Below, piece by piece: positions 9,131 through 50,228 of a stretch of 64,000 nt of DNA (the first letter of the stretch is position 1; every line of letters begins with the position of its first letter). The notes under the pieces are model-generated. The model was given only the letters and a program-made list of their open reading frames with translations, was not told the origin of the DNA and ran no database searches. The DNA is from Nitrosopumilaceae archaeon (GTDB lineage: Archaea; Thermoproteota; Nitrososphaeria; Nitrososphaerales; Nitrosopumilaceae): contig CBDCCK010000002.1 of assembly GCA_965214835.1 (NCBI GenBank), positions 32,001 to 96,000 on the forward strand. Reading direction: 5' to 3'. The position numbers were made by a program, and so were the translations under genes.

Positions 9131-10791
9131 GTCCTCCTACTCCTGCTACTCCCCCTTCTCCACAGCTTCTCGCCTCGTTTCCCCCCGGACTCTCCCCGCG
9201 TCCGGAGCAAAAACGCATACTTGCAGACATCGGCGAGGCGCTTGCCTCGGGGTACCGCGATATCATACTGTGCGCGCCCACCGGTGTTGGCAAGAGCGCC
9301 GTGGCAGCTGCGGTCGCCCGCTCGATGGGAAGCTCGTTCGTGCTTACCGCCCAGAAGATACTCCAGGATCAGTACTCGCGCGACTTTGGCTCGTGGCTTG
9401 CCCCCGGCAAGGGCAAGGGCAACTTTCCGTGCCGCGCCCTGTACGAGGGGGTCATGTCCCGTGACGAGGCGGCATCCGACCCGTCCGTATCGTGCGCCAA
9501 CGGCGTGTGCTCGTGGCACACGCCGCAGGGAACCGCGCACTGCGAGTACAAGCCCGTCCTGGCCGAGTTCGAGCCCGGCGGTGAGTGTGGTGATGACGAC
9601 AATTGCTGCCACTATTATTCGGCAAAATATACGGCGCTTGCCTCGCCGCACTCTGTATACAACTATGCGGCATACTTTGCAATACGCGGCCAGTTTCTTC
9701 CGGACCGGCTCATCCGGAGGCAGGTCGTCATTTGTGACGAGGCCCACGAGCTTGAGGACGTGCTGGCAGAGCACGTCGGCTGCGAGATAACAAGATCGTA
9801 CCTTGCCGACGCCGACTCTGCGTTTTCCGAGTTTGAGGATGTCGATGCCGTCGAGGGTGTAACCCGCATGGTCTCGCTTCTCTGCGACAGGTACGGTGAG
9901 CGCCTGCGCAGCTCGCCGGACGGGAGGATGCAGTCCCGGCTGGAGCGCCTCTCGCTGTGCAGGTACGAGCTGGCAAACAGCCCGGGCAACGTGTCCGTAC
10001 AGGTCAACCGATATGATGACGGCCACGTGCGGTCCGTCTCTGTCCGGCCCCTGTCCGTGTCGCGGTACGCCGAGAGGTATTTGGACTCGCCGCACCGGAT
10101 CTTCATGTCTGCTACCATCCATCCGGACATGTTCTGCGGCCGCATGGGCATTGACGGGCGCGACTGCTGCTTTGTGGACGTAAAGACCGCCCCCTTTGAG
10201 GCCTCCCGCGCCCCCGTCTCCTTCTGCGACGTGGCCGCCATCAACCGCGATACCGGCGAGGACGAGTACGCCCTGCTATACGATAGGATCGACTCGATAC
10301 TGGACATGCACGGCAACCACAAGGGGTTGATACTGGTGTCTTCGGTGGATCAGTGCCGCAGCATTGCCGCCGGGCTGTCCGAACGCAACCGGGGCAGGCT
10401 GCTGCAGGTATACAACTCGGCGCCGCTTGAGCGCGACGAGACGCTGCGCCTGCATGCCGGCTCCCCCGAGCCGACGGTCCTGATATCGCCGAGCCTGTGG
10501 TACGGCGTTGACCTCCGCGGGATGCTCTCCAGGTTCTGCATAATAGCAAAGTGTCCGTTTCCGTCTCTGGCAGACAGGCGTGTCGGCGCGCTGGCAAAGG
10601 CAAGCCCCGTATGGTACCGGTATCACACACTGTGCAAGATGCTCCAGGGGATGGGGCGCAGCATACGGAGCGAGGACGACTGGGCCGACACGTATGTTCT
10701 GGACTCCAACGCCGGCAAGCTCGTGCGGCAGATGTCCGCATACGTCCCTGACGCATACGGGGAGGCGCTCTCGGAGGTAGGGGGAAGATGA
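9127..10791 (+). CDS. DinG/XPD-like SF2 helicase
   Basis: Q motif RPEQ, APTGVGKS, Cys cluster, DEAH, MSAT, QGMGRSIRSEDD. Confidence 0.93.
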   Translation: MSPPTPATPPSPQLLASFPPGLSPRPEQKRILADIGEALASGYRDIILCAPTGVGKSAVAAAVARSMGSSFVLTAQKILQDQYSRDFGSWLAPGKGKGNFPCRALYEGVMSRDEAASDPSVSCANGVCSWHTPQGTAHCEYKPVLAEFEPGGECGDDDNCCHYYSAKYTALASPHSVYNYAAYFAIRGQFLPDRLIRRQVVICDEAHELEDVLAEHVGCEITRSYLADADSAFSEFEDVDAVEGVTRMVSLLCDRYGERLRSSPDGRMQSRLERLSLCRYELANSPGNVSVQVNRYDDGHVRSVSVRPLSVSRYAERYLDSPHRIFMSATIHPDMFCGRMGIDGRDCCFVDVKTAPFEASRAPVSFCDVAAINRDTGEDEYALLYDRIDSILDMHGNHKGLILVSSVDQCRSIAAGLSERNRGRLLQVYNSAPLERDETLRLHAGSPEPTVLISPSLWYGVDLRGMLSRFCIIAKCPFPSLADRRVGALAKASPVWYRYHTLCKMLQGMGRSIRSEDDWADTYVLDSNAGKLVRQMSAYVPDAYGEALSEVGGR

Positions 10792-34616: not shown

Positions 34617-34687
34617 TGGACCCCCCGGGAATCGAACCCGGACCTCTCGGGTCTTAATCGAGCGTATTCCCATTATACTAGGGGCCC
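34617..34687 (-). tRNA. tRNA with AAG anticodon and alanine-type acceptor stem (G3:U70, A73)
   Basis: GGGCCCC TA GTAT-AATGGGA-ATAC G CTCGA-TTAAGAC-CCGAG AGGT CCGGG-TTCGATT-CCCGG GGGGTCC A. Full cloverleaf with an A31-C39 mismatch, short variable loop and no encoded CCA. Confidence 0.85.
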
Positions 34688-35998: not shown

Positions 35999-36403
35999 TC
36001 AGGAGGCAGGCACCTGCAGTGTAACACGTCCGGCCTTTATACCGGCCTCTATTTTGTCCCCCCTGCCGGCCCCGAGGGCGCGTATGTACTCCACCGGAAT
36101 GGTCACCCTGGTGGTATAGTAGCTCTGGGTCTTGTAGGTGCGCGTCCTCTTTGTCCTTACGGTTACGGGGACGTATCCTGAGGATGCCGGTGGTTCTGCG
36201 TGCAGCGTGATTGTGCGGCCGCGCAGCACGGCATAGAGCGTCATGTCGTCATGCAGCCGGGCCTGTCCTGCCGTCTCTGACGGTATGGTGACCGTATACG
36301 TATCGTGCGTAAAGACGCCGGCAGGCTCTGTCTTTTTCTTGCGGTGGGCGCACAGCACTGGCATCACACATACGTGAATGCCGCAGGATTTAAGACTCGG
36401 CAT
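35999..36403 (-). CDS. Tandem AbrB/SpoVT-like DNA-binding protein
   Basis: Two VTIP...L...GD-type repeats (VTIPSETAGQARL; RVTIPVEYIRALGAGRGDKI). Confidence 0.7.
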   Translation of the reverse strand: MPSLKSCGIHVCVMPVLCAHRKKKTEPAGVFTHDTYTVTIPSETAGQARLHDDMTLYAVLRGRTITLHAEPPASSGYVPVTVRTKRTRTYKTQSYYTTRVTIPVEYIRALGAGRGDKIEAGIKAGRVTLQVPAS

Positions 36404-36848
36404 GGCAGGGCGGCTCCAGGGCCTCTACGATAATGTCGGTTTTCGTGTCGGCGTAGAGGGATGCCAGTAGCCTGACGTCTCTGATGAGGCGCCTTGCGCA
36501 GGATATGTGTATCCTGGAGGTGCCGGTGCGGCGCTTGAGGAACACGCTGACGGGCGCCCCGGGCATCGCGTCAGACAGGTGCGCCTTGAGGGCCTTGCTC
36601 CTGACTGACAGGTCAAGCGAGGAGACCTCGCCGCGCCTCTCCGGGTACCTGTCCGGAAGCGCCTCCAGGGGCGTCCCGGTCTGCCTTGAGGCGCGCCTCA
36701 TAGCGCGGCTGAGCCTGAAGCTGGCCCTGCCGCAGAACGGAACCTGCACGGCTCCGTTGCGGCTGCCCGCCGGTGCGGGCTGGCTGTGTGCCGTCCCAAG
36801 CTGGACGGTCGTCTGTTGCTGCTGTAGGTTTGATGATGATTTTTTCAT
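36390..36848 (-). CDS. Hypothetical basic protein
   Basis: GGAGG RBS and ATG after a GGCC-GAAA-GGCC hairpin. Confidence 0.55.
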   Translation of the reverse strand: MKKSSSNLQQQQTTVQLGTAHSQPAPAGSRNGAVQVPFCGRASFRLSRAMRRASRQTGTPLEALPDRYPERRGEVSSLDLSVRSKALKAHLSDAMPGAPVSVFLKRRTGTSRIHISCARRLIRDVRLLASLYADTKTDIIVEALEPPCHAES

Positions 36849-36856
36849 ATCATCCT

Positions 36857-37075
36857 CCCGGCCTTTCGGCCTTTTGTCGTCTGGACCGCAGCATATTCTG
36901 CGGCCCTTGCGGGATCCCGCCTACGTATGGTGACGGGATCTGCGGCACGGCGTGATATATGTCATTCCGTGCCCGGTGTGGATCCGGCACGCGGGCCGGA
37001 GATTCCGTGGTGCGTATGGGGGATCGCCCCTGCGGCGCCGGACACTGTATGATGCCGGCGCAGTCTGTCAGGGGT
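36857..37075 (-). ncRNA. Highly structured leader / ncRNA candidate
   Basis: Consecutive hairpins (CCCCTG/CAGGGG, GGCACGG/CCGTGCC, GATCCCG/CGGGATC, CCGCAG/CTGCGG, GGCC-GAAA-GGCC). Confidence 0.5.
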
Positions 37076-37095
37076 GTGATTGCTTTCTTTCTTTT

Positions 37096-37280
37096 TCCCC
37101 GACCATGCGGTCACGTGCCGGAATGATCCGGCACGTGATACGGCGTGCACGGGTGCCTCCGCATGGAGGAATCACCGCGTGTACGCGCATGCATGGTTTC
37201 GGCAAGACCCTCAAGGGATCAAGCCAACCCGGCAGCCTGAGGCAGCCGAGCTTCCGGAATATCCGGAATCATCAGGAGGA
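37096..37280 (-). ncRNA. Hammerhead-like ribozyme, type I topology, copy 1
   Basis: UCCUC-CUGAUGA...GGC/GCC-GAAAC-CAUGC...GCAUG-GUC-GGGGA. Stem I is 5 bp and stem III is 7 bp; the GUC triplet is at 37103-37101. Confidence 0.72.
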
Positions 37281-37386
37281 TTTGTTCCTGTGACACAGGG
37301 GCTTGCACCCTGCAGCGGCCGGAACCTGGCAGTGTCCGGCCTGTTTGCGAGAAAAGACAACGTTGTACTTTTTGACGCTTCTCTTT

Positions 37387-37554
37387 TCCCCGACCATGCC
37401 GTTTCTGCCCGAATGAGATCCGGACAGAAAACGACCGCGCCGTCCCAGTAGGAGCGGTGCAGTCTGCATGGTTTCGGCAAGACCCTCAAGGGATCAAGCC
37501 ACCCGGCAGCCTGAGGCAGCCGAGCTTCCGGAATATCCGGAATCATCAGGAGGA
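37387..37554 (-). ncRNA. Hammerhead-like ribozyme, type I topology, copy 2
   Basis: Same core and stems as copy 1 with a different stem III insertion; the GUC triplet is at 37394-37392. Confidence 0.72.
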
Positions 37555-37849
37555 TTTGTTCCTGTGACACAGCGATGAATCGCTGCAATGCCGGCAAGTG
37601 CCGGCACAAGGTGGGGAGAGGCTAGTCTGCCATCCCCAAAAGGTATGAAGTACGGGATCATACCGCAGCCACGGTGGCGCGGATCATCCGTACAGTTGGT
37701 TTGTCGTATGCGACCAAGTTGCCATCAGGGTCAGCGACACAGGACTCCTACTCTGGGAGCGCGTCGCCGATGCCGTTCTGTATTGATACGGCATCAATCA
37801 GTGACGGCATCATCCAAACCAGAGTGGCCGCCATGTCCCACGTGTGCGT

Positions 37850-38134
37850 CTAAAGGTCGGACTCATTTGCCTCTAATGCCTTGGCAAGACGGTCGCCCAT
37901 GTCCATCACAGACCAGATCATTACAAGTCCAACTCCCCAGAGGGTGAGAAGGATGGATCCGCCCACTGCAAATGAGGGGTCGATACGGGAGAGGGACATC
38001 AGCATGACAGCCCCCGCAATGCCGATCACCACAAAGATGGCATTCCGTAGTCTGACAGTAGAGTCCCTGCCACTTTTTTCCGCCTTGCTTCCGGCTGCAT
38101 CATTCTTTGATTCTTGAGGCATTAGGTCATTCAC
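37850..38134 (-). CDS. Small two-TM membrane protein, multicopy family
   Basis: RN.IF..I...VGLVM.W..MD.GD.L motif shared with neighbours; GTG start. Confidence 0.6.
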   Translation of the reverse strand: MNDLMPQESKNDAAGSKAEKSGRDSTVRLRNAIFVVIGIAGAVMLMSLSRIDPSFAVGGSILLTLWGVGLVMIWSVMDMGDRLAKALEANESDL

Positions 38135-48812: not shown

Positions 48813-50228
48813 CAGTAGTTCCTCGATGTACTTTTGCAGGCACGATAATTACGCAATTTGCCGAGATTTTTTGACCATCATACTATAGATCAGGCGGTGT
48901 GCCAACCATCATCATGATACCAACACAAAACGACGTGTTTGCACACCAGTTTGACATAACATCGAGACAGTTTAAAACATTGCGACGGCGGTTTCCCAAG
49001 CTCGGGCTGGCCGTCTCAAAGAGTCGCAACGCAGTGTATGACCACATCGACGCACTGCGCGTTCTATATTTCATGTCTGAGAGGAGGATGTTTGCAGAAT
49101 CTGCCGTGACGCACCTTCGCAGGCGGGCCTCAAAATGCAGCAGGCAGCAGCATGACGACGGGGCTGCCTCCAAGGGCGGCGCGTATAGTTGCCGTACGCC
49201 TAGTCCGGACTGGATCCTAAAGGCGATCCGGGGCGTCAGCCTGGATGATGCGCAAAAGTGGTGCAGCTCCATGCTGCAGCATACGGTAAGGTGCGCCCGC
49301 AGGTCAGGCATGCTGCACAACACGGACGTCGTGGCAGTGGACGTTACCGACGTGGAATACTATGGCAAGGGCCTGGAGGATATCGCCAGAAAGTCAAAGC
49401 CCAAGAACGGCACGTCGACGTTTCTCTCGCACATTACCATGCACGGAATAGGATCAGATGACGGGTCTGACCTCGTGCTTTCCTCGCTGCAGCTTCCAAA
49501 AGAGGCAAAACTGGCCGATTTCGTGCCTAAAATGATCCGCAAGGCGTCCAGATCAGGGATGAGGATCAAGACGTTCCTGTATGACCGCGGGTTCTTTAAC
49601 GTGGACTGCATGAGGGCTGCAGAAACAAGCACGGGCAGCTACATCATGCCTGCCGTCAAGAACAGGAGGATAGTGGCGGCAATAGAGGAGCATGACCGCG
49701 GAGAACGCGGTGCGGTATCAAAATATACAATGACCAACAAGGACGGCAAGAGCGCCACATTCAGGCTAGTCATTGTGGAAAAGGACGAGGTAGAAAAGGA
49801 CGGCACGGCAGCAGCAAAGAAGGACAAGGCAGAAGAGACCATAGCCGACAGGTATCTGGTCTTTGCCACCAACATGTCTGCTAAAAGTGCAGAGGCAGTC
49901 ATTGAGCAGATACCGGAGGAGTACCGCAGTCGGTGGGGAATCGAGACCGGGTTCAGGGTGATCAAGGGGATAATGGGCAAGACGTGCAGCAATTCCCCGG
50001 TCGTCAGGCTGCTGCTGTTCTATATGTCTGTCATACTGTACAACCTGTGGAGGACTGCCGTGTTCATAGACGTGGAATCCAAGTGGGACGGATTTGCAGG
50101 AGGGAAGGGGTTTACCATGATGCTGTTTGTCGCGTGCATTGTCGATGCGGCCGACTCGTTTGTAAACGATCGCGGAAAGTAGCGGAGGTGCCGTGTCGGG
50201 TCTGCAAAAGTACATCTAGGAAGTACTG
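48813..50228 (+). mobile_element. ISH3/IS4-type insertion sequence
   Basis: Imperfect ~33-bp terminal inverted repeats (CAGTA.TTCCT.GATGTACTTTTGCAG..) and a 4-bp AATT target duplication at 48809-48812 and 50229-50232. Confidence 0.92.
48899..50182 (+). CDS. tnp: DDE transposase (ISH3/IS4 family)
   Basis: VAVDVT...YYG, YDRGFF, YIMPA, FATN, Y..RWGIETGFR..K, LYNLW. Confidence 0.93.
   Translation: MPTIIMIPTQNDVFAHQFDITSRQFKTLRRRFPKLGLAVSKSRNAVYDHIDALRVLYFMSERRMFAESAVTHLRRRASKCSRQQHDDGAASKGGAYSCRTPSPDWILKAIRGVSLDDAQKWCSSMLQHTVRCARRSGMLHNTDVVAVDVTDVEYYGKGLEDIARKSKPKNGTSTFLSHITMHGIGSDDGSDLVLSSLQLPKEAKLADFVPKMIRKASRSGMRIKTFLYDRGFFNVDCMRAAETSTGSYIMPAVKNRRIVAAIEEHDRGERGAVSKYTMTNKDGKSATFRLVIVEKDEVEKDGTAAAKKDKAEETIADRYLVFATNMSAKSAEAVIEQIPEEYRSRWGIETGFRVIKGIMGKTCSNSPVVRLLLFYMSVILYNLWRTAVFIDVESKWDGFAGGKGFTMMLFVACIVDAADSFVNDRGK

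Follow-up and report, generated by a model that had tools for sequence, protein, structure and literature searches.

The hammerhead is a textbook small ribozyme. Its three-way junction, in which A9 is stacked on G10.1, is treated as fixed, and the two residues together form a divalent-metal site. The consensus core has two free positions, N7 and H17, and G17 is a disfavoured residue. As far as the available parts of two published accounts go, prokaryotic hammerheads are often found close to integrases or prophages (PMC3088659) and flank small open reading frames (ORFs) of unknown function (PMC6155905), while the type I hammerheads of animal satellite DNA are tandem copies at close spacing (PMC6155905). 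Here we analyze a pair of hammerhead-like elements, copies A and B, on the minus strand of a 64,000-nucleotide (nt) stretch of a Nitrosopumilaceae archaeon genome (GenBank assembly GCA_965214835.1, contig CBDCCK010000002.1; the whole stretch is called the window and the genome G000). We document their sequence, fold, conservation and covariation, together with a pattern of invariant and free positions that is specific to hammerheads. The elements are probably active five-way-junction hammerheads of type I order, which would process mobile-element transcripts upstream of an AbrB-type regulator gene.

Coordinates are positions in the window, and RNA letters are read from the minus strand. Each copy contains, in order, stem I, CUGAUGA, two hairpins, a G-C-closed stem II, GAAA, stem III, GUC and the second strand of stem I:

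37387–37554, minus strand: ribozyme copy A (sequence; minimum free energy (MFE) fold, z-score −6.25; match to covariance model R1, described below, at 37382–37526, 58.1 bits, E 1e-10)
37554–37550, minus strand: copy A, 5′ strand of stem I, UCCUC (sequence)
37549–37543, minus strand: copy A, core box C3–A9, CUGAUGA (sequence; CUGANGA in 28/28 family members)
37542–37526, minus strand: copy A, hairpin 1, UUCCGGA/UCCGGAA (sequence and fold; covaries across the family)
37525–37501, minus strand: copy A, hairpin 2, GCUCGGC/GCCGGGU (sequence and fold; covaries across the family)
37501–37542, minus strand: copy A, 42-nt insert between A9 and G10.1, consisting of hairpins 1 and 2 (sequence and fold)
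37500–37476, minus strand: copy A, stem II (GGC, UU, GAUCC, loop, GGGUC, UU, GCC; sequence)
37475–37472, minus strand: copy A, GAAA (sequence)
37471–37394, minus strand: copy A, stem III (CCAUGC...GCAUGG) with a two-hairpin insert (sequence)
37393 and 37392, minus strand: copy A, U16.1 and C17 (sequence)
37391–37387, minus strand: copy A, 3′ strand of stem I, GGGGA (sequence)
37096–37280, minus strand: ribozyme copy B (sequence; MFE fold, z-score −6.55; R1 match at 37091–37252, 65.6 bits, E 2.4e-12)
37280–37276, minus strand: copy B, 5′ strand of stem I, UCCUC (sequence)
37275–37269, minus strand: copy B, core box C3–A9, CUGAUGA (sequence; CUGANGA in 28/28 family members)
37268–37252, minus strand: copy B, hairpin 1 (sequence and fold)
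37251–37227, minus strand: copy B, hairpin 2 (sequence and fold)
37226, minus strand: copy B, linker U, extra relative to copy A (sequence)
37226–37268, minus strand: copy B, 43-nt insert between A9 and G10.1 (sequence and fold; hairpins covary)
37225–37201, minus strand: copy B, stem II (sequence)
37200–37197, minus strand: copy B, GAAA (sequence)
37196–37103, minus strand: copy B, stem III, with an insert unlike that of copy A (sequence)
37102 and 37101, minus strand: copy B, U and C17 (sequence)
37100–37096, minus strand: copy B, 3′ strand of stem I, GGGGA (sequence)

The two C17 letters place the predicted cuts 3′ of 37392 and 37101, 291 nt apart. In the unconstrained MFE fold of each copy, CUGAUGA and GAAA are unpaired; the first follows stem I, three hairpins in a row lie between the two, and a branched stem III comes after the second. 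None of 200 dinucleotide shuffles folds as well. A repeat search aligns the copies over a 72-nt block (100% identity), a 40-nt block (98%) and a 19-nt cleavage block (95%). The stem III interiors (37103–37196 and 37394–37471) are unrelated and the spacers also differ, despite the 98–100% identity of the 5′ domains. Such a mosaic points to conversion or module exchange and away from a simple recent duplication. The whole G000 genome contains these two copies only. An earlier note on this DNA had described two minus-strand copies of a complete hammerhead core in type I order, 42–43 nt forming two hairpins between A9 and G10.1, a stem III insert that differs between the copies beside a conserved cleavage block, and cuts at the positions given here. 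All of this is borne out to the base and agrees with the MFE folds; the insert measures 42 nt in copy A and 43 nt in copy B.

Homologues were found by sequence, pattern and structure searches. BLAST against 401 genomes of the order weakly matched three that belong to the same family; on inspection, these show the same layout. A gapped pattern built from hairpin 2 and stem II matched 50 metagenome loci. Fifteen of these are true members, 11 marine and four from soil or peat, and the remainder are chance matches in coding sequence. Eight of 401 family genomes matched the forward pattern, while a reversed-pattern control matched none (0/401). The covariance model R1, which comprises hairpin 2, stem II, GAAA, stem III, UH and GGGG and excludes stem I, CUGANGA and hairpin 1, added the genomes G187, G703 and G340 as well as two copies in G672. 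The element is sporadic: of the 401 family genomes, at least 11 carry it (eight by the pattern; G187, G340 and G672 by R1 only), and it also occurs in G703. With R1, only G000 and G187 were detected among 151 genomes of the order, only G000 among 151 of the phylum, and none outside the family. A 17-letter gapped pattern applied to general genome contigs matched at least 117 stretches, mostly bacterial chance matches. Viral contigs yielded one chance match to the gapped pattern, lacking the core, and no match to exact 5′-flank motifs, which is not proof of absence. In a phage collection, neither a marine member (blastn) nor the AbrB-type protein (tblastn) had a match.

In total, 28 distinct full elements of 128–221 nt were parsed; they come from G000, from 11 more genomes of its family and from 15 metagenome loci. 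Among the R1 matches, a soil or peat element (L155:912-1078) is the only one that fails the full-length parser. It does so solely through an A for U at stem I position 1.4, which gives an A-A mismatch; its core is intact. Because the element recurs, with covariation, elsewhere among genomes and metagenomes, and because the reversed control is empty, it is more than a chance arrangement. Conservation and covariation indicate that it is a conserved folded RNA family.

The core letters C3, U4, G5, A6, G8, A9, G12, A13, A14, A15.1 and U16.1 are identical in all 28 elements. GAAA is invariant, and stem III opens with A15.1-U16.1 in every case. The variation is confined to N7 (U in 26, G in one and A in one) and H17 (A in 10, C in nine, U in nine, never G). 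The earlier note had made its case dependent on homologues that keep the CUGAUGA/GAAA/GUC core and had called for a homologue search with a covariation test; the core is indeed kept in 28/28 elements, and all five helices covary. The invariance is partly ascertained, as the collection patterns required GCCGAAAC and the parser demanded CUGANGA, GAAA and U-N-GGG. Ascertainment alone does not account for it, because the G187 element was missed by the pattern and recovered by R1, which lacks the box, and has CUGAAGA at the expected place; moreover, no homologue recognized by hairpin 2 and stem II is without the full core, and each R1 match inspected carries it.

These counts also bear on whether the element could be an unrelated kind of RNA, for instance a riboswitch-like leader or a small RNA (sRNA), with a junction that resembles a hammerhead by chance. 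Its five-way junction is unlike that of any described hammerhead and it matches no Rfam family, which would suit such an origin. The probability of a chance match, with CUGANGA, GAA, the A-U pair and the unpaired H in the right strands, is below ~1e-6 by a rough estimate, and the conservation pattern would also need to mirror the hammerhead consensus exactly. We therefore consider an unrelated RNA very improbable.

The helices were assessed by junction-anchored counts over 23 distinct elements. Stem I positions 1–5, hairpin 1 pairs 1–5 and stem III pairs 1–4 are each paired in 22–23 of the 23. Hairpin 1 shows one to six pair types at each of these pairs, with one type at pair 2. The first four pairs of hairpin 2 (G-U, C-G, U-G, C-G) do not vary, and those beyond them covary. 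When the 3′ partner is displaced by one position, hairpin 1 falls from 155 paired cells to 75 (of 184), hairpin 2 from 189 to 90 (of 207) and stem III from 144 to 69 (of 161). In the model alignment A4 (27 matches, 24 distinct rows), which is itself fitted to the structure of the model, 93.1% of 634 cells are paired as against 44% when slid by one, and both sides change in 15 of 29 pairs. Shuffles of A4 never reach the observed value in four of five measures (0/500), and do so in 96/500 for further pair types. Many of the sequences are close relatives, so that all these counts overstate the independent events. Judged by these alignments, all five helices covary. Hairpin 2 and stem II contain invariant G-U and U-G pairs, which would be A-C on the other strand; the minus strand is thus the RNA strand.

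The same data speak to a reading in which there is no RNA element and the region is either a repeat that acts at the DNA level (for example as operator or recombination sites) or a piece of a protein-coding gene. ORFs of 113–132 amino acids (aa) do overlap the region on both strands, and a palindrome of 13 base pairs (bp) precedes each copy. Covarying helices with G-U pairs on one strand only, and helix length changes that are not multiples of three, are left unexplained by this reading. ORFs shared over the element amount to just six clusters of two or three. Five stem from the near-identical G313 or G286 copies, and the sixth is a 64-aa ORF that starts in stem III of three close marine loci. 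A purely DNA-level or coding origin is extremely improbable.

The junction departs from the canonical hammerhead. In all 28 elements, two hairpins of 42–106 nt in total, with 0–1 unpaired nt, separate A9 from G10.1, and the G000 insert is the shortest. A9 directly adjoins G10.1-C11.1 in none of them. Helices I, II and III follow in the right strand order for type I, and two extra helices join them. The two hairpins inserted between A9 and G10.1 turn the three-way junction into a five-way one. The pair next to G12 is G-C in 24/24 distinct rows, and this invariant closing pair supports the assignment of that helix as stem II in the earlier note. Stem I spans just 4–5 bp without an internal or terminal loop, and the loop of stem II varies. 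Behind stem I lies a conserved A-rich tail, which reads GGGGAAAAAU in most members. This 3′ tail and the invariant wobble pairs of hairpin 2 could replace the stem I/stem II contact.

In one subgroup (L005, L170, L176, L180, L185-L187, L193, L226-L228), hairpin 1 has a conserved asymmetric internal loop, AAAUGAUCC... / ...GGUGUUA. This loop does not fit a standard k-turn, and may represent a tertiary or protein contact.

Other assignments of the conserved letters were examined. A K-turn or C/D-box reading of CUGAUGA...GA fails, by eye, on the partner of the D-box CUGA and on the geometry of the three-nucleotide bulge. The hammerhead is preferred over it because U16.1, H17 and stem I fit the hammerhead. 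A type III or type II reading through an upstream GGGAAU was rejected: it would place a C at 16.1 in most members, and every member has a hairpin that closes stem III. A candidate C/D-box sRNA downstream of marine members was also dismissed, its boxes not being conserved between loci and having no Rfam match.

Besides the limits on the counts given above, several points weigh against catalysis by these elements. To our knowledge, A9 and G10.1 are contiguous in every known hammerhead, and an insert of 42–106 nt at this step could abolish catalysis. The short stem I offers no identifiable loop-loop tertiary contact. Rfam has no hammerhead or other family at E≤10 in 36800–37900 and no family at E≤1 in 18 homologous loci, and a scan of the whole G000 genome with the hammerhead models RF00163 (type I) and RF02276 (type II) is empty at E≤1. 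Even core insertions of 1–2 nt usually lower activity, according to the available part of Perreault 2011 (PMC3088659).

The insert, the effect of small core insertions and the lack of a Rfam hammerhead match would suit a catalytically dead, hammerhead-derived structured RNA, whose fold is kept for another role, e.g. as a protein-binding or stabilizing leader or 3′ end of mobile-element transcripts, and whose core letters persist for structural reasons alone. The insert lies at the step of the canonical metal site. The four invariant closing pairs of hairpin 2, including G-U and U-G, and the conserved internal loop of the hairpin 1 subgroup could be protein or tertiary sites in such an RNA. What a dead RNA leaves unexplained is the invariance of eleven catalytic-core letters with variation at N7 and H17 only, a position 17 that is A, C or U and never G in 28 elements, and the invariant closing pair of the G10.1-C11.1 type. 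We regard loss of activity as unlikely.

With regard to novelty, a search of the window against Rfam 15 at the gathering score found no family except a tRNA at 34617–34687, and the element matches none of the curated hammerhead models (RF00163, RF00008, RF02275-RF02277). Searches of an open-access library returned no description of a hammerhead in these archaea, with supplements and the ZWD collection outside the scope of that search. Nor did they return a hammerhead with a four-way or five-way junction, supplements and specialized motif databases again being outside the scope. The available part of a 2026 preprint on new ribozyme classes holds nothing relevant.

An active five-way-junction hammerhead could work as follows. 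The RNA would be transcribed together with the same-strand flanking genes of an integrated mobile element. The G-C-closed helix beside G12 would still act as stem II, stacked under the G8-A13 and A9-G12 pairs, and would be reached through a crossover resembling a four-way junction. The two extra hairpins would stack on each other beside stem II, as in a four-way junction, and would replace the loop-loop contacts that hold stem I in canonical hammerheads. The RNA would cut itself 3′ of H17. The upstream product would end in a compact ribozyme with a 2′,3′-cyclic phosphate, and the downstream mRNA would begin with a 5′-OH at GGGGAAAAA and encode, among others, the double AbrB-domain regulator. 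As the element is tandemly duplicated in G000, a double cut would also release a 291-nt RNA:

37101–37391, minus strand: predicted 291-nt RNA between the cuts, containing a hairpin-bearing spacer and almost the whole of ribozyme B (from the positions of both C17 letters)

Both the linear and the circular MFE fold of this 291-mer keep the ribozyme B helices. In the MFE fold its 5′ end (GGGGAAAAGAGA, region 37345–37391) pairs with CUUUUCUC ~30 nt downstream and not with stem I. Such pairing could be a competitor of stem I before cleavage or a trap for the product afterwards. The ends expected from cleavage are of the kind joined by RtcB, which links 2′,3′-cyclic phosphate ends to 5′-OH ends. G000 encodes RtcB (584 bits), so that a ligase for these ends is present.

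A second tandem pair occurs in G672 (L233 = G672:C1:1720000-1739999, local 9991–10450), where two nearly identical copies lie 307 nt apart. It is flanked on one side by an ArdC-N-like gene and on the other by a Type ISP restriction enzyme. In G313, two copies are separated by 1648 nt and a third is ~18 kb away; G286 has two dispersed copies, and the remaining genomes have one each. A close tandem of ~300 nt is thus found in two of 12 genomes, with one more pair at 1648 nt. Close tandem pairs are recurrent, yet not the rule. Because they are the exception, transcript processing is more likely as a general role than circle production.

It is also conceivable, and compatible with an active five-way-junction ribozyme, that the tandem pair is the functional unit and makes an RNA of ~300 nt that is circularized by RtcB or by the ribozyme. 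Such a unit would be an archaeal analogue of retrozymes or satellite-DNA hammerheads, possibly yielding a small mobile or regulatory circular RNA. The 291-nt spacing in G000, the 307-nt pair of G672 in a context that is also mobile or defence-related, the pair in G313, the RtcB gene and the circular fold all point this way, as do the close tandems of type I satellite hammerheads recorded in the available part of PMC6155905. On the other side, nine of the 12 element-bearing genomes have single or dispersed copies only, and the pairs consist of just two units and never arrays. The G000 and G672 spacers show no similarity by eye, the 5′ end of the 291-mer pairs away from stem I, and tandem duplication is a common neutral event. 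We see a slim chance that the pair is such a unit.

Several further features of the tandem region were observed. The G672 copies have GCUU instead of GCUC in hairpin 2, GGCC in stem II and no linker U; the neighboring proteins are ArdC-N-like and a 1292-aa Type ISP restriction-modification enzyme. In related strains from public runs, variation is found mainly in peripheral parts and in the stem II loop at 37211–37212. Contigs from four public runs (DNA or of unknown kind) break at the repeat and show neither joints nor ends; they do not bear on expression. A similar GC-rich hairpin, GCCGGACACUG..., forms an inverted repeat ~50–60 nt past each cleavage site (37037–37059 and 37318–37340). Its presence behind each ribozyme implies that the duplicated unit was formerly longer than the ribozyme. 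A short palindrome precedes each copy:

37561–37572, minus strand: short palindrome or hairpin CUGUGUCACAGG, upstream of copy A, inside the 100%-identical block (sequence, repeats)
37287–37298, minus strand: the same CUGUGUCACAGG ahead of copy B (sequence, repeats)

Soil members, G313 and some marine members (by eye; L135, L004, L136) have a hairpin of other sequence in this place, with a short A-rich linker between it and stem I. The upstream hairpin may serve as a protein-binding site or form a sixth, covarying helix (P0).

The host is an ammonia-oxidizing archaeon, since G000 encodes an archaeal AmoA (384 bits, with no match in 14 control genomes) and has a full-length match to the archaeal small-subunit (SSU) model. 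The ORFs flanking the element are co-directional with the RNA. Two genes lie downstream:

36390–36848, minus strand: ORF of 152 aa, first downstream, no known family (cluster of five homologues; no Pfam or PHROG match)
35999–36403, minus strand: double SpoVT/AbrB-domain gene, 134 aa, downstream of the ribozyme (homology, PF04014, PDB profiles)

A homologue of the AbrB-type protein (~130 aa) is encoded downstream in 12 of 16 loci. The family alignment A2 shows two Y..TIP repeats. PF04014 is matched by seven of eight members (best E 7.5e-8); at 21.1 bits, the protein encoded in the window stays under the cut-off of 24.7. Both halves of the protein have weak PDB profile matches to AbrB N-domains. 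The full-length gene is present in 10 genomes, all of which (10/10) also have the ribozyme, at a distance of 0.4–6 kb in most and 27 kb in G640. A protein homologue search with the 134-aa protein returned the window's own protein alone.

Homologues of the 152-aa ORF lie directly upstream of the ribozyme in marine loci. As the ORF is downstream in the window, the module has been rearranged. In one marine subgroup (L136:7193-7600, L141:46-453 and relatives), an upstream ORF homologous to 36390–36848 enters the element by ~27 nt. This puts the stop codon in or just past the CUGAUGA box, so that the end of the gene and the start of the ribozyme overlap. The other marine subgroup (L005, L170, L176, L180, L185, L186, L193, L226, L227) has an A/T-rich TATA-like box, e.g. 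UAUAAAAAA, ~10 nt ahead of AGGGAAUCCCC and 20–35 nt upstream of the CUGAUGA box (by eye). From the position of the box, the ribozyme may sit at the very 5′ end of the transcript. Cleavage in this subgroup may remove a triphosphate leader of ~170 nt.

In the window, the wider neighborhood holds two ORFans (721 and 774 aa) along with genes for restriction-modification, a ParB-like protein and a DDE transposase. The region 13408–34508 has a lower GC content (0.43–0.55 versus ~0.6 elsewhere) and resembles a defence island beside the ribozyme module. Several of its genes are of the restriction-modification kind, encoding a 1325-aa protein of the Eco57I/MmeI type, a ResIII helicase and a 902-aa N6_N4 methylase; ParB-N and SAM methyltransferases are also encoded there. 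The DDE transposase (PF01609, E 2e-11) is located at 48899–50182 on the plus strand, ~11 kb upstream of the ribozymes. The tRNA at 34617–34687 was considered as the source of an att-like repeat and rejected, as it has no exact match of at least 14 nt elsewhere in the window. The context fits integrated mobile elements with defence cargo. The earlier note had proposed a new hammerhead variant in an archaeal mobile element just ahead of an AbrB-like regulator. The archaeal source and the conserved regulator gene downstream hold. The other two parts stand as far as sequence can test them: the mobile setting through the sporadic presence, the ORFans and the restriction-modification, transposase, ParB-like and ArdC-N-like genes, and the new variant through a core and an insert found in 28/28 elements that match no Rfam family.

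If cutting occurs, a classic ribozyme has a new shape, with two extra hairpins in its core. Activity would mean that the hammerhead core tolerates a radically different junction topology, and would offer structural biology a new scaffold in which peripheral helices take the place of loop-loop contacts. Motif and covariance searches that presume a contiguous core would then be missing real ribozymes. It would also establish a hammerhead-type family in ammonia-oxidizing archaea that is tied to an AbrB-type regulator gene in poorly known mobile elements, and provide a testable case of ribozyme-mediated operon processing, possibly with circular-RNA formation, in archaea.

Among known systems, the type I hammerheads (RF00163) share with the present elements an open stem I, followed by CUGANGA, stem II, GAAA, stem III and UH, as well as all core letters and the A15.1-U16.1 pair. 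They differ from them, as do the satellite hammerheads, in lacking the two-hairpin insert of 42–106 nt and the five-way junction, and in that stem I here has 4–5 bp and no recognizable contact loop. For an insertion at this step, the nearest precedent is the hammerhead of CChMVd (De la Pena and Flores 2001), which reportedly tolerates one extra nt between A9 and G10.1, where two complete hairpins sit here. The core changes described in the available part of Perreault 2011 are single substitutions or 1–2-nt insertions (after A6, U13a, 2a/2b) and not helices (PMC3088659). With the prokaryotic and phage hammerheads of types I–III (Perreault et al. 2011), the elements share an intergenic site between co-directional small ORFs of unknown function, integrated mobile elements and a sporadic spread, as far as the accessible text of these sources shows (PMC3088659, PMC6155905). 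Those hammerheads, as described there, have the canonical three-way junction, many with a pseudoknot, unlike the five-way junction found here (PMC3088659).

The spacing of ~300 nt in G000 and G672 recalls the type I hammerheads of newt, Schistosoma and cricket satellites, which the available part of PMC6155905 describes as close tandem copies. Here, by comparison, the host is archaeal, there are two units instead of arrays, and RF00163 gives no score. Retrozymes, in the parts of the literature accessible to us, are plant or animal retroelements of 600–1000 nt with canonical type III or type I hammerheads (PMC4918200, PMC5680766, PMC6155905). Their direct repeats occur in many genomic copies; the present copies are mostly single, with two units per locus at 291 (G000), 307 (G672) and 1648 nt (G313). 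Circles and RNA-mediated spread are known for retrozymes, while the evidence here comes from DNA sequence. In its boldest form, the comparison would make the element a five-way-junction hammerhead class of ammonia-oxidizing archaea, with two helices at the A9/G10.1 metal-site step, whose tandem copies in G000 and G672 excise RNAs of ~300 nt that are circularized by RtcB or the ribozyme. This prokaryotic, DNA-encoded counterpart of retrozymes and satellite circles within mobile elements is a doubtful proposition at present. What the tandem copies have in common with retrozymes and viroid-like circular RNAs is the direct repeat of two hammerheads, from which a unit-length RNA with ligatable ends would be excised.

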